DNA from: a virus
IMG/VR virus record: IMGVR_UViG_3300045996_001765
Span: 1 to 43,578 of that record
Length of the DNA: 43,578 nt
Direction: 5' to 3' (one strand)
Under the pieces are notes generated by a model. It made no database searches, was not told the DNA's origin, and saw nothing but the letters and a program-made list of their open reading frames with translations. Position 1 is the first letter of the stretch, and each line of letters begins with the position of its first letter. The position numbers and the translations under genes were made by a program. Positions 27,605-30,454 of this stretch are shown here, in pieces.

Positions 27605-27660
27605 CTTGAGGGAGATGGGGCGAGGTGATCGAATTGACGGGCCGAGTTGGGAGCCTGATC

Positions 27661-27921
27661 ATGCCCGTCAATCCTGAGTACAAGCCTGACTATCAGTTGA
27701 TCATCGACTATGTGACCGCCCGGATCGCGTCGGGCGACTGGCCGCCCGGCCACAAGCTGCCGCCGCCGGCCGAGCTGGCGACGGTGATCGACCCGCCGAC
27801 GTCATCCGCGACCGTTCGCCGCGCAACCGACACCTTGCAGGACCGCGGAGTGCTCGTCGGCCGACAGGGGAAGGGCGTGTACGTCGCTGAGCATCCACGC
27901 GGCGTGACGTCAACAAGCTGA
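27661..27921 (+). CDS. GntR-family winged-HTH protein, DNA-binding domain only (86 aa)
   Basis: The pattern Y..I.DYV...I.SG.W.PG.KLP....LA......S..TVR.A...L...G.L....GKG.YV matches the GntR N-terminal domain. ATG 27661 is preceded by gggag. There is no effector domain. Confidence 0.65.
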   Translation: MPVNPEYKPDYQLIIDYVTARIASGDWPPGHKLPPPAELATVIDPPTSSATVRRATDTLQDRGVLVGRQGKGVYVAEHPRGVTSTS

Positions 27922-27934
27922 TCGCGTGATCAGC
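27917..27934 (+). terminator. short stem-loop overlapping the stop of the GntR-type gene
   Basis: gctgatc (27917-27923) pairs with gatcagc (27928-27934), with loop gcgt. There is no T tract. Confidence 0.3.
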
Positions 27935-28086
27935 CGTCCGGGGGATAGATCCGAAGATTACGCGACCGTTACGTTCGGCTCTACGGTCGGTTAACTGTCC
28001 TCGATCCGACAGATCGCCGACACGACGGTAGGCAAAGGCGCCGACTTCCCCCGCCCTGCCCGCCACAAGGCAGGAGGGAGAAGTAC

Positions 28087-28521
28087 GTGTCCAACCGCGC
28101 TGCCATCTTCGTTCAACGGGGCGGTCCGCCGGCGGATCGGCAGATCGACGCCTGCCTCCAGTTCTGCATCGCGTCGGAGTACACCGTCCTCGCCCTCATC
28201 AGGCACGGCGAGCCAGAGGCCGCGGTCGCCCTAGCCAGAGAGCACCGTGTGTCGGTGATCGTCACGGGTTACGACTCCAAGGCCGTCCGGCAGCTCGCCG
28301 CCGACATCGACGGCAACGGCAGGGTCGAGGTGATACACCCGGAGCCCCGCGTCATCCCGCCACCCAAGCACAAGCTCGACGGGCCGATCGGCGAACTGAT
28401 CGTCAGGTGGTTCCGTCGCGGCAAGACCGTCCAGGAGATCGCGAAAGACGTTGAAAGCGACACCCACGAGGTTCGGGCGCTCATCCGAAGGTATGGCGGG
28501 GACCCCGGCCAATCGCATTGA
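28087..28521 (+). CDS. resolvase-like N-terminal domain lacking the catalytic serine, plus a C-terminal HTH
   Basis: GTG 28087 is preceded by ggagggag. RAAIFVQRGGPPADRQ...C..FC parallels RAAIYARVSTDEQ...Q...C of serine recombinases, but with Gly where the Ser nucleophile sits. The C-terminal GKTVQEIAKDVESDTHEVRALIRRYG is HTH-like. Confidence 0.5.
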   Translation: MSNRAAIFVQRGGPPADRQIDACLQFCIASEYTVLALIRHGEPEAAVALAREHRVSVIVTGYDSKAVRQLAADIDGNGRVEVIHPEPRVIPPPKHKLDGPIGELIVRWFRRGKTVQEIAKDVESDTHEVRALIRRYGGDPGQSH

Positions 28522-28538
28522 ATTGCCCCACATGAGTA

Positions 28539-28570
28539 ACCGCCCCGAGTGCATCAGCAACCGGGGCGGT
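28539..28570. terminator. stem-loop between convergent genes, 3' of the integrase gene
   Basis: accgccccg (28539-28547) pairs with cggggcggt (28562-28570), with a 14-nt loop. Confidence 0.5.
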
Positions 28571-28595
28571 CCACACTGTGTGCAGCTTCGAACTT

Positions 28596-29483
28596 CTAGG
28601 AAGAGGTCGGGGTGGCGAAAGTGGGGAGCGAGTCGATGGCGTCGGCTCGCTCCTCATCCGTGACGAGGGTGTAGATCGCCGTCGTCGCCAGCGTTGAGTG
28701 GCCCATGTTGCTCTGGACCGTCCGGATCGACGCTCCGGCCCCGCCGTACTTGACCGGTCGCAACTGCATCGTCGCGTACCAGTGCCTGAGCCGGTGAAGG
28801 CTCATCCCAGCCATCCCGTTCCGGTTGAACGTCATGATCATCGACGTCGAGATGTATCCCGCGGTGACCGGCGCACCGTCGCGCACCTTCCGTGCGATGC
28901 GGCCTGCCGGCAGCGGTTTGACCGCCTCCCAAACGACCCCGTGCGTCGGCACCACTCGGGTCTTGCCTGACTTCCCGGTGAGCCGGATCGATTCCGCGGT
29001 CACGTCCGACCGGTCGAGGTTCGCGATCTCGCAGCAGCGCGCCCCGGCGTAGGCGGCGAGCTTGACGTAGAGCCTCCACGGGTCGTCGAGTTGGAGGGCT
29101 TCCGCCAGCTGGGCGTTGGTTGCCGGCTTCGGCACCGTCGGAGCGACCCGCGGCCGGCGCAGTCCGGCGCTCGGGTCGAAGTCGATGCGAGGGTTAGCCG
29201 GGTCGGACGCCCAGCGGAAGAACGCGGTGATGTGGCCGTAGTAGGTGGCCTTCGTCTGATCGTCGTCGTGGGAGGCGAGGAAGTCTTCCAGCTCCTCGAT
29301 GGTGGCCTGGCCGAGGCCCATGGGCAAATCCCGGTCGAGGTACCGGAGGAGTCGCTCCCGGCTGTCCCTGGTGGTCTGTGCTAGCCCTCGGGCTGCGCAG
29401 TGGCGAATATGCTCGCCTATCAGTTCGGTCATGAACCTGACGATCTCATCGTCGGCCTTGGACCGCTTCCGCGCCGTGGTCAC
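28596..29483 (-). CDS. int: tyrosine integrase (XerC/D-like, no arm-binding domain)
   Basis: The product is 295 aa. It has a SAM-like core-binding N-terminal domain. Catalytic signature: GARCCEI (Arg), HRLRHWYAT (His-x-x-Arg), GHSTLATTAIY (His, Tyr). GTG 29483 overlaps the repressor stop (GTGA). Confidence 0.9.
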   Translation of the reverse strand: MTTARKRSKADDEIVRFMTELIGEHIRHCAARGLAQTTRDSRERLLRYLDRDLPMGLGQATIEELEDFLASHDDDQTKATYYGHITAFFRWASDPANPRIDFDPSAGLRRPRVAPTVPKPATNAQLAEALQLDDPWRLYVKLAAYAGARCCEIANLDRSDVTAESIRLTGKSGKTRVVPTHGVVWEAVKPLPAGRIARKVRDGAPVTAGYISTSMIMTFNRNGMAGMSLHRLRHWYATMQLRPVKYGGAGASIRTVQSNMGHSTLATTAIYTLVTDEERADAIDSLPTFATPTSS

Positions 29484-29953
29484 CGAACCGGCACCGCTCG
29501 TCTACCGGCGGTACCGGCGGGGATGGAAGCCCGTGAATCGGCTCGGACCTTCGGTCGCGTGTCGGCCGGCCGAACGGATGAAGCTCGCATCGGCTTATCA
29601 GGTCCCAGGGGATACCCACTGGTATCAGAGATTACCCGTTTGGTCGGACGCCCGCGTGCCGGCTCAAGCGCGCCGCCCAGCAGCAGCCAGTTGAAGTCGA
29701 CGTCCAGCGCGTTCGCGATCGCCTGACACACGTCGACCTGCCCCTGCGGCCGGCGGCCGTTCTCCCAGTTGGCCCAGCTGGACCTGTTCAGGCCTGCAGC
29801 TGCGGCGGCTTCCTCGATCGTCATGCCGGCAAGCCGCCGGGCGAGCACGAGTCGGTTGCTGAAGGTGTCAGCGGGGATGCGGCCGGTCCTCGGCGTGGAT
29901 GCCTTCGCCGCGCTGAGGGCGGCGTCGTCGGGGTTCGCGGTCATGGCAACCAT
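29480..29953 (-). CDS. XRE/cI-type HTH repressor with a ~60-aa compositionally atypical C-terminal tail
   Basis: The HTH is FSNRLVLARRLAGMTIEEAAAAAGLNRSSWANWENGRR. The start is ATG 29953 or 29944. It is divergent from a cro-like gene and co-oriented and overlapping with int. Confidence 0.8.
   Translation of the reverse strand: MVAMTANPDDAALSAAKASTPRTGRIPADTFSNRLVLARRLAGMTIEEAAAAAGLNRSSWANWENGRRPQGQVDVCQAIANALDVDFNWLLLGGALEPARGRPTKRVISDTSGYPLGPDKPMRASSVRPADTRPKVRADSRASIPAGTAGRRAVPVR
29595..29637. other. candidate attP core inside the repressor gene (hypothesis)
   Basis: There is a perfect inverted repeat GATACC-cact-GGTATC (29611-29626), flanked by TTATCAGG (29595-29602) and GATTACCC (29630-29637). 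It lies within a locally GC-poor stretch of the repressor tail with low GC3. Confidence 0.3.
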
Positions 29954-29954
29954 T

Positions 29955-29995
29955 TTGGCGGATCGCCAACCCGGTTGGCAACGGTGCACATGTGC
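29955..29995. promoter_or_regulatory. operator-like half-site array in the rep/cro divergent region
   Basis: TTGGCG-gat-CGCCAA (29955-29969) overlaps GCCAAC-ccg-GTTGGC (29965-29979). This gives three alternating TTGGC/GCCAA half-sites 10 bp apart. A 10-bp palindrome gcacatgtgc follows at 29986-29995. Confidence 0.5.
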
Positions 29996-30037
29996 CAGTG
30001 AAGCAAGGAACTGACCGAAAGGCTTAGTACCTAGCCG

Positions 30038-30067
30038 TTGACGCAAAAGTTAGCGTCGTGCCAACAT
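30038..30067 (+). promoter_or_regulatory. candidate early rightward promoter (near-leaderless cro-like transcript)
   Basis: TTGACG (30038-30043), 18-nt spacer, CAACAT (30062-30067), 7 nt before ATG 30075. A GCCAA half-site (30060-30064) overlaps the -10. Confidence 0.35.
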
Positions 30068-30074
30068 TAGCGGC

Positions 30075-30281
30075 ATGAAGCGAACCGCCACCGCGCAACT
30101 CGTGGAGCTGAAGCTCGGCGAACCGTTGGCCGACTTCGTCAAGAAGCTCCGCAGCGACGAGCGCTCCTGGCCCTACATCGCCAGGAAGCTCCGCGAGCGC
30201 ACCGACGTGTCGTTCTCCGTCGAGGCCCTCCGCAAGTGGTTCCTCGACGAGTTCGGTGACGACGCCGAGCGTGCGGCATGA
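30075..30281 (+). CDS. cro-like / small HTH DNA-binding protein
   Basis: The 68-aa product is divergent from the repressor. It has the HTH-like segment SWPYIARKLRERTDVSFSVEALRKW. Confidence 0.6.
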   Translation: MKRTATAQLVELKLGEPLADFVKKLRSDERSWPYIARKLRERTDVSFSVEALRKWFLDEFGDDAERAA

Positions 30282-30454
30282 CCTACTCCTCCTTCCTCTC
30301 CCGCTTCGGCCCGGTCGCGACGTTGATTGCGATCCGCGCCGCGGCGCACGAGCCGCCGGCGCCCCGCTGGACCCGGGCGCAGGCCGACCCGTGGTTCGGA
30401 GCTGACCCGGCCCACGAGACCCGCTTCGCCTACGTGCCGGCGGTGGCGTGGTGA
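30278..30454 (+). CDS. hypothetical protein (58 aa; below the track threshold)
   Basis: ATG 30278 is in an ATGA overlap. The stop TGA 30452-30454 overlaps GTG 30451 of the next gene. Third positions are almost all G/C. Confidence 0.5.
   Translation: MTYSSFLSRFGPVATLIAIRAAAHEPPAPRWTRAQADPWFGADPAHETRFAYVPAVAW

Follow-up and report, generated by a model that had tools for sequence, protein, structure and literature searches.

A candidate integration-dependent immunity switch in an uncultured actinophage, with a palindromic repeat in the repressor gene as its predicted attP core

Introduction

In phages with integration-dependent immunity (IDI), of which BPs, Brujita, Charlie and the Cluster P phages are the canonical members (Broussard et al., 2013; PMC3694055), the phage attachment site attP lies within the repressor gene (rep), and integration removes the C-terminus of the repressor (Rep) and uncouples the integrase gene (int) from the rep promoter. 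Here we describe an int-rep-cro cassette in IMG/VR virus record IMGVR_UViG_3300045996_001765, a JGI metagenome contig of 43,578 nucleotides that we call the window and to which all coordinates refer. The cassette is probably an IDI switch in which rep is split on integration at a core with the sequence GATAC-CAGTGG-GTATC. It adds one more case to an established switch design, without being a new design itself, and the concept of the switch is unchanged by it.

Among cultured phages the window repressor has just five matches, all of them M. abscessus phages or prophages, with 40-45% identity; four of the five matched records are prophages, and GenBank notes put their attP within the immunity repressor. 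The M. abscessus IDI set with non-tRNA attB sites comprises prophiGD53-3, prophi62-3, prophi108-1, prophi91-3 and phiT45-1, and IDI prophages at non-tRNA attB sites have cores of 3-25 bp and use the first base on the bacterial side to complete a stop codon (Dedrick et al., 2021; PMC8092301). With the repressors of phiT45-1 and prophiGD53-3, Rep shares 40-41% identity in the helix-turn-helix (HTH) region, and both Rep and Int match established IDI members. The window cassette shares with this set a homologous repressor and an int directly 3′ of rep and, as predicted here, an attP in the 3′ part of rep and a short core with TAC-N6-GTA at homologous codons, in which the TA of a Tyr codon and the first host base would form a stop. 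In contrast, its Int is only ~32% identical to those of the set, no DNA similarity was detected, the rest of the window genome is unrelated, and the host is probably not Mycobacterium, the integrated relatives of the Int family being found in Micromonosporaceae. Whereas phiT45-1 has an 18-nt gap between rep and int, the two genes of the window overlap in GTGA. Its predicted spacer is CAGTGG and that of prophiGD53-3 is TCACGA, so the attB sites must differ.

Like BPs and Brujita, the window has an int-rep-cro cassette, a divergent promoter region and an Int without an arm-binding domain, and it needs no recognisable excisionase; an attP within rep, with the same consequences of integration, is what we infer for it. 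Canonical cores, however, are tRNA 3′ ends of 25-45 bp and canonical Rep and Int carry -AA tags; the predicted core of the window is a palindrome of ~16 bp, and the window has neither feature. Predictions in Gordonia phages (PMC5559632) and Bifidobacterium prophages (PMC6109161) place the same switch outside Mycobacterium on bioinformatic grounds, namely attP/attB identities of 20-40 bp, mostly in tRNA genes, together with -AA tags, and again the window has neither. A further likeness is to XerC/XerD-dif and to integrative mobile elements exploiting Xer (IMEX), where two inverted recombinase arms surround a spacer of 6-8 bp and the recombinase is Xer-like. Unlike in those systems, the recombinase is phage-encoded, the target mapped for a relative is an operator palindrome and not dif, and the site lies in the coding region of a switch.

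Results

Integrated relatives join host DNA on the 5′ side of int

The repressor gene (29480-29953, minus strand) and int (28596-29483, minus strand) form one leftward unit with int directly 3′ of rep and in the same orientation, and a cro-like gene diverges from them. A preliminary description of the window had reported that the rep stop and the GTG start of int overlap in the tetranucleotide GTGA (29480-29483, minus strand), and we read it in the same way: the stop TGA is TCA of the plus strand at 29480-29482 and the start GTG is CAC at 29481-29483. Such an overlap would couple translation of the two genes and leaves no room for a promoter of int. Overlaps of this kind (GTGA or ATGA) are also found in at least ten related phage-form loci, which we designate by L-numbers (and related proteins by P-numbers), namely L006, L027-29, L145, L147, L148, L150, L153 and L155.

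The virion form of the repressor, assigned to PHROG 2328 (transcriptional repressor), is an XRE-type HTH protein and carries an HTH_31/HTH_3 domain at residues 35-94. Int is a tyrosine integrase of 295 residues that starts at GTG. Only PF00589 (residues 137-277) scores above the Pfam threshold, preceded by ~120 residues, the size of a core-binding domain, and the protein belongs to PHROG 1. Its best match in the PDB is 5VFZ ‘Gp33’ (E 9e-22, residues 60-290), followed by XerD, and both alignments begin at residues 56-60. Length (295-300 residues) and N-terminus are kept among homologues, of which public data hold 161 at E <= 1e-10, the closest being 60-72% identical. Judged by its domain content Int is thus a two-domain enzyme without an arm-binding domain, in agreement with the earlier account. 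We take 5VFZ to be the arm-less integrase of Brujita, an enzyme reportedly studied by Lunt and Hatfull in 2016; on that assumption the two are alike in length, in their two domains and in having no arm-binding domain, and unlike in that their identity is low, the Brujita attB overlaps a tRNA gene and the window enzyme is known from sequence alone. Among phage integrases, those of Mycobacterium, Gordonia and M. abscessus phages share 28-34% identity with Int, the Cluster P phages Purky and Phayonce included, and the integrase of Gordonia phage Walrus (32%) is among the best tblastn matches. The phages with matching integrases presumably include the IDI clusters G, N and P.

Where relatives of this integrase are integrated, int stands at the prophage edge with its 5′ end toward host genes and no repressor upstream. 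This is the case in Dactylosporangium sp. CA-052675 (L008), in Phytohabitans rumicis (L009, L010), in Micromonosporaceae loci L013-L023 and in eight isolate-derived IMG/VR proviruses (L041, L047, L050, L054, L058, L065, L075 and L101). In every integrated relative examined, host DNA begins ~45-310 nt from the 5′ side of int, and phage genes (a 141-aa protein, GntR, lysis and tail genes) lie on its 3′ side. Junctions elsewhere, for instance at 28522-28595, had been considered beforehand; as far as relatives can tell, host DNA is joined 5′ of int instead. Because the integrated relatives join host DNA there, attP in this family lies 5′ of int, and with rep stop and int start overlapping, a site 5′ of int must in the window fall inside rep. 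We therefore regard it as highly probable that attP sits in the 3′ part, or tail, of rep.

Two junctions give direct anchor points. The curated M. abscessus prophage prophiGD53-3 (MW584183.1) has 18 bp, AGTTCTTACTCACGAGTA, in common between its two record ends. This att core ends in TTAC-TCACGA-GTA, at codons homologous to an inverted repeat in the window rep tail that is described below. The repressor side of the record ends ...CAC GAG TA, and the integrase side runs ...GAGTATGAACC... into a rep 3′ fragment and int. Where the prophiGD53-3 record ends in GAG TA, the free phage phiT45-1 has GAG TAT, the last codon encoding Tyr.

The second junction is that of a Catelliglobosispora koreensis prophage whose Int is 38% identical to that of the window and which adjoins glmU-tRNA-Gln. 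Empty sites in sister genera were retrieved by a glmU-based scan. The attL of the lysogen reads CTGTCAAACTAC-GGGACC-GTATTCGCC (in a longer reading, ...CTGTCAAACTAC-GGGACC-GTATTCGCCGGTAGCCCGAACGG...), the empty site of Catellatospora reads CTGTCAAACTAC-GGTCCC-GTAGGTTACGG (...CTGTCAAACTAC-GGTCCC-GTAGGTTACGGTGTCGTAGG...) and that of L351 reads ...CAAAACTAC-GGGACC-GTAGGTTACGG.... The junction thus falls inside CTAC-GGGACC-GTA, and the empty sites of the sister genera have the form CTAC-N6-GTAG. Host identity stops within the palindrome, 176 nt upstream of int, and in this comparison no further similarity was detected past the tRNA. This attB is an operator-like palindrome 5′ of a desaturase/TetR gene pair, 130 nt from the 5′ end of tRNA-Gln. 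An attB at a tRNA 3′ end, as originally anticipated, is not what the family offers: the mapped attB is a short palindrome, relatives' junctions lie outside tRNA genes (those of L008 and L010 are intergenic), and by ARAGORN the window contains neither a tRNA nor a tRNA-like segment.

The palindrome at the C. koreensis site is itself of some interest. In tandem form, with the consensus ACCTACGGnnCCGTAGGTTACGGTnnCGTAGGT, it lies 5′ of a fatty-acid desaturase gene that is followed by a TetR-type regulator gene. It occurs at L351:1281-1330, upstream of tRNA-Gln in L157, L158, L160, L162 and L163, and in L236-L355, and it extends across the Actinomycetota (Kribbella, Mycobacterium, Streptomyces, Nocardia, Rhodococcus, Cellulomonas and Micromonosporaceae) in at least 120 genomes. 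From its sequence and position it looks like a very widely conserved operator that also serves as attB of the C. koreensis prophage.

A repeat in the rep tail coincides with the mapped junctions

The last 63 codons of rep (29483-29671, minus strand), the part predicted to be lost or replaced on integration, differ from the rest of the gene in composition. As had been noticed before, codon usage shifts here: the fraction of G or C at third codon positions (GC3) is 0.59 in these codons vs 0.89 in codons 1-94 (that of int is 0.87). The tails of relatives differ in sequence yet keep DNA blocks built from rare codons, and they retain two peptide motifs, VRPxDTRPKVR and GRRAxPVR.

Within the tail, 128-143 nt upstream of int, lies the inverted repeat at 29611-29626 (GATACC 29611-29616, cact 29617-29620, GGTATC 29621-29626). 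Its position, like all other coordinates of the preliminary description, had been given correctly there, with a division as GATACC-cact-GGTATC; we find it better described by 5-bp arms, GATAC and GTATC, around the 6-bp spacer CAGTGG, read on the minus strand. Taking the rep tails of all phage-form loci from the WLLxGG motif to the stop, we obtained 32 unique tails, and 13 of these contain TAC-N6-GTA, 32-80 nt past the W codon and in the same frame. Shuffled tails contain it in a mean of 0.53 cases and at most 4 (2000 trials).

Aligned on this motif, the window core GATAC-CAGTGG-GTATC stands beside GGATAC-CGACGA-GTAT (L006, L150), GGATAC-CGTGCG-GTATC (L069), GGGGATAC-GGTGCC-GTATCCCC (L093), GGGATAC-CCCGCG-GTATCCC (L375), GGGGATAC-CCTTCA-GTATTCCCC (L035), GTTAC-CGGATG-GTATC (L033) and TCTAC-CAAATG-GTATT (L130). 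Across the tails with the motif the arms are conserved and the 6-bp spacer varies, as one would expect, in sequence terms, for the core of a tyrosine recombinase. The T of TAC occupies the third position in GAT, GTT, GCT, CCT, TCT or CTT codons, which specify six amino acids, in genomes with a GC3 of ~0.9; the constraint therefore appears to act on the DNA and not on the protein. In all 13 tails the TA of GTA forms positions 1 and 2 of a Tyr codon; in the window this is the TAT codon of Tyr114 (29612-29614, minus strand), whose TA ends the right arm GTA.

The proposal that the repeat is the core has therefore gained from the family-wide recurrence of TAC-N6-GTA and from its coincidence with the prophiGD53-3 core and with the attL/attB junction of C. 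koreensis. Homology with these sites makes 29611-29626 the probable attP core, a claim that we make a little less firmly than that of an attP in the rep tail, with the arms as putative Int half-sites and the 6-bp spacer as the putative overlap region. The IDI reading as a whole, which the preliminary description had put forward, draws support from homologous repressors with an internal attP, from the match of Int to 5VFZ, from relatives with int at the prophage edge and from the core motif at mapped junctions; of the elements open to checking, only the degradation tags were wanting.

Conserved motifs flank the predicted core

Two octamers had been named as flanks of the repeat, TTATCAGG and GATTACCC. 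They are indeed present at 29595-29602 and 29630-29637, and no role was demonstrated for either; the flanks conserved in the family are instead CCGTTTGG and CCGAACGG. The former (CCAAACGG on the minus strand; 29636-29643) is on the rep-proximal side of the core, within a block, ACCAAACGG (29635-29643), that contains rare AAA and GTA codons and is identical in the window, L006, L027-29 and L145-L155. The latter (CCGTTCGG on the minus strand; 29570-29577) is on the int-proximal side, and this 8-mer does not vary between the window, L006 and L007. Both belong to the class CCG(AA/TT)CGG and flank the predicted core in inverted orientation. The class occurs at 1.92 per kb within 260 nt upstream of int (79 loci) vs a background of 0.17 per kb, an enrichment of about 11-fold, and the C. 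koreensis attL has two CCGAACGG copies on its phage side, 11-40 nt past the junction. These motifs may be accessory sites for the integrase or a host factor, in which case attP would not be purely core-only.

Just 5′ of the int start, a 13-nt sequence, GGTAGACGAGCGG (29494-29506, minus strand), encodes Gly-Arg-Arg-Ala with rare AGA and CGA codons. It is kept in the window, L006, L007, L027-29, L031 and L145-L155, even where the surrounding tail has diverged; translational coupling, pausing or protein binding are possible roles.

A different element of 16-18 nt, (CA)GTAACGTTGCAGTTTC, occupies the rep tails of two sublineages in opposite orientations, on the rep strand in L145, L147, L148, L153 and L155 and on the opposite strand in L027-L029. 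It encodes S-N-V-A-V-S in one sublineage and E-T-A-T-L-L in the other. Since it occurs in both orientations coding cannot explain it, and it is a candidate for an alternative attP core that would use another attB.

Searches for a lysogen of the window lineage

Several searches for integrated copies and their junctions gave no result. An exact-protein look-up of Int returned no record, a scan of genome contigs with Int peptides gave remote matches only, and a scan of genome contigs with the Rep alignment found no relative. With a second Rep profile search no protein from a large genome was recovered, and the rep-side junctions of integrated prophages were thus not obtained. In metagenomes the conserved pattern of the rep/int junction was found in phage-form contigs and in three chance matches only. 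The attR predicted for C. koreensis, TACGGGACCGTAGGTTAC, was not present in viral contigs by pattern scan; a relaxed form of this pattern, run against genome contigs, yielded the widespread operator among the matches listed and did not retrieve attR. In viral contigs GATACCAGTGGGTATC gave 18 chance matches, in viruses that are unrelated and mostly of low GC.

Two candidates for a truncated prophage repressor came to light. We rejected P0216 as an artefact: its contig runs into an Illumina adapter. The last ~45 nt of this contig (L030; ENA ERZ27252338 k141_1662528) are the TruSeq adapter AGATCGGAAGAGCACACGTCTGAACTCCAGTCAC, and a false ‘truncated repressor’ has entered a public protein collection because of it. 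In P0175/L026 the gene after a truncated Rep is a host-like one of XRE/MmyB type, int is absent, and the palindrome has a spacer of 7 nt; from this arrangement the locus is probably an attR. Relative to its closest full-length relative, L375 (77% amino acid identity), similarity is lost ~30 nt before the repeat, and for that reason the crossover cannot be placed.

Evidence against the proposed core and alternative explanations

Several observations weigh against an IDI switch with its core at 29611-29626. The repeat alone is ordinary, since the window holds 255 perfect inverted repeats with 6-bp arms and spacers of 0-8 nt, the spacer being 4 nt long in 29; conservation in relatives is the only source of its significance. 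TAC-N6-GTA is absent from 19 of the 32 tails, and some of these carry GTAACGTTGCAGTTTC, so the core type is not uniform in the family. The contig of L007, whose Int is 72% identical to that of the window, starts 17 nt to the int side of where the repeat would fall; should this break mark the edge of a core, it disagrees with a core at 29611-29626. Neither a lysogen nor an attL, attR or attB turned up for this phage or for a close relative (>60% Int identity), and the mapped junctions come from distant relatives (Int 38% identical in C. koreensis, repressor 41% in prophiGD53-3). Finally, neither Rep (...GRRAVPVR) nor Int (...LPTFATPTSS) ends in an ssrA-like -AA degradation tag. Such a terminus is present in 62 of the 139 Rep homologues that we collected, and the endings -VR, -IR, -VW and -IW of the window's subfamily result from the overlap with the int start codon. 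Accepted M. abscessus IDI members (clusters MabC, N, O and H) also lack -AA, and other degrons are presumed for them (PMC8092301). The tag is typical of IDI and not universal.

The alternative that fares best keeps attP in the rep tail and the switch integration-dependent, and moves the crossover to another conserved element, with TAC-N6-GTA as an accessory sequence. The candidates are the imperfect palindrome CCGTTCGG-N15-CCGAAGG (plus strand 29548-29577) and the ACCAAACGG block. The halves of the former, CCGTTCGG(CC) and CCGAAGG, show no variation among the window, L006 and L007 and keep a constant spacing of 15 nt, the CCG(AA/TT)CGG class is enriched upstream of int as described, the L007 contig starts between the TAC-N6-GTA position and CCGTTCGG, and that of L149 starts directly after ACCAAACGGTCAG. 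Contig ends are weak evidence, however; those near int (L007, L018, L022, L023, L149 and L152) carry little weight because they are mutually inconsistent. Both junctions that can be mapped argue against a displaced crossover: that of the C. koreensis attL falls in TAC-N6-GTA with both CCGAACGG copies beyond it on the phage side, and the curated prophiGD53-3 core ends in TAC-N6-GTA. Only this motif, moreover, combines conserved arms, a variable spacer and a fixed Tyr frame. We consider a crossover at one of the other elements unlikely.

There is a far smaller chance that the palindrome and the tail have no part in integration at all, and that they represent an operator for Rep or Cro, an RNA hairpin that adjusts the translational coupling of rep and int or a peptide degron (D-T-x-x-Y), with the recombinase acting as the Xer-like resolvase of a plasmid prophage. 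Int does resemble XerD and XerC, VRPxDTRPKVR and GRRAxPVR are conserved as peptide motifs of the tail, and no integrated copy of the phage's own lineage was seen. Yet relatives of the Int family are demonstrably in chromosomes, the T of TAC occupies synonymous third positions of six codons, as a constraint on DNA rather than peptide would have it, and parABS genes were not noticed in the window, in which no systematic search for them was made.

Conventional immunity, with attP outside rep (for instance at 28522-28595 or 27922-28086), a repressor that stays intact in the lysogen and the tail as a disordered C-terminus, could appeal to an attB found for no segment, to the untagged Rep and Int and to a hairpin-capable GC-rich repeat within 28522-28595, but we give it next to no credence given that in integrated relatives int has host DNA to its 5′ side and phage genes to its 3′ side, that the gene overlap puts any site 5′ of int inside rep and that attP splits the M. 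abscessus repressors homologous to Rep.

Control region and neighbouring genes

The window has the appearance of a complete genome of a temperate actinophage, with rightward structural genes and a rightward early arm; the leftward int-rep pair is central. No close cultured phage was found, megablast of 28400-30400 against phages being without a match, and the terminase is at best ~33% identical to that of any cultured phage.

Between rep and the divergent cro-like gene lies a control region of 121 nt (29954-30074) with divergent promoters and palindromic TTGGC/GCCAA sequences as candidate operators; inverted repeats occupy 29944-29980 and 29976-29997. A promoter-like sequence, TTGCCA-18-CAAAAT (minus strand, 29981-29952), points into rep. 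It is the only such site in 28400-30300 (one vs 0.1 expected) and ends 8 nt before the ATG at 29944. Rep has 157 residues if counted from the ATG at 29953 and 154 from that at 29944; its homologues favour the latter, most of them opening with MTANP at the equivalent codon. From the position of the promoter-like site and the MTANP starts, rep is probably read from a leaderless mRNA that begins at 29944 and not at 29953.

The divergent gene (30075-30281, plus strand) encodes a small protein of 68 residues, and its presence bears out the earlier call of a divergent gene here. It matches no Pfam, PHROG or PADLOC family and shares 38% identity (E 2e-8) with its positional counterpart in L006; a cro-like function is suggested by position only.

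On the other side of int, the 74 nt of noncoding DNA described previously (28522-28595) separate it from a convergent gene for a 144-aa protein (28087-28521, plus strand). We rejected this spacer as attP, since the host junction of integrated relatives is on the 5′ and not the 3′ side of int. The 144-aa protein has no match in Pfam, PHROG or PADLOC and only weak C-terminal HTH signals, and a resolvase-like reading of it was dropped for want of Pfam support. Homology was compared for L006 only, whose counterpart is 49% identical. An open reading frame (ORF) of similar size occupies the same position in most relatives examined (L006, L007, L008, L027-29 and L375), integrated ones included. A gene for a small GntR-type HTH protein (27625-27921, plus strand) also lies near int and convergent with it, and a GntR gene is called beside the 144-aa-like ORF in L007, L008, L027-29 and L375 and not in L006. 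The placement of these two genes beside int fits expression from the prophage.

Three related loci, L027, L028 and L029 (JGI 3300072490-92), have an identical integrase (P0017), near-identical repressors and, left of rep, different sets of early genes, a mosaicism whose breakpoint lies at the immunity cassette.

Discussion

On the IDI reading, Int dimers would bind the GATAC and GTATC arms and strands would be exchanged across the 6-bp CAGTGG with a short, palindromic, non-tRNA attB of the form TAC-CAGTGG-GTA. Integration would split rep at Tyr114, leaving its 5′ part and the promoter at one prophage end. The promoter-proximal fragment would end at or just past codon 114, where a first host purine would turn the TA into TAA or TAG; the GTAG of the mapped C. 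koreensis attB and the terminal TA of the prophiGD53-3 repressor side are parallels. The prophage repressor would then have ~113 residues (110 from the ATG at 29944) and be without its 44-residue tail. The tail fragment and int would pass to the other prophage end, ~43 kb away, severed from the rep promoter. If BPs and Brujita are a guide, virion Rep at full length may be unstable or inactive and the truncated form the one that gives immunity. Immunity would thus depend on integration, and the supply of Int would, as in those phages, set the direction of recombination without an excisionase.

A broader and more speculative possibility is that the whole Int/Rep family, from the mycobacterial to the Micromonosporaceae members, shares one design consisting of a TAC-N6-GTA core that turns a Tyr codon into a stop, accessory sites and an operator as attB. 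We doubt that this holds throughout and offer it tentatively. In such a design CCG(A/T)(A/T)CGG accessory sites may flank the core, and palindromic operators of host transcription factors may be chosen as attB. If so, lysogeny would rewire host gene regulation, target specificity would change by the 6-bp spacer alone, and the attB of the window phage would be an operator containing TAC-CAGTGG-GTA(R). The core rule across the family and attB sites of the operator type are worth following.

The cassette also provides a rule by which such switches may be recognised without a host genome: a rep stop that adjoins the int start or overlaps it, int being arm-less, a rep tail of low GC3, and an in-frame TAC-N6-GTA on a Tyr codon. 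Residues 1-113 of the repressor are predicted to be the form to clone for immunity markers, and a minimal attP of ~30-40 bp is predicted for integration vectors in antibiotic-producing actinomycetes. IDI has until now been documented for Mycobacterium, with predictions for Gordonia and Bifidobacterium; the switch proposed here would extend it to an uncultured actinophage lineage whose integrated relatives sit in Micromonosporaceae.

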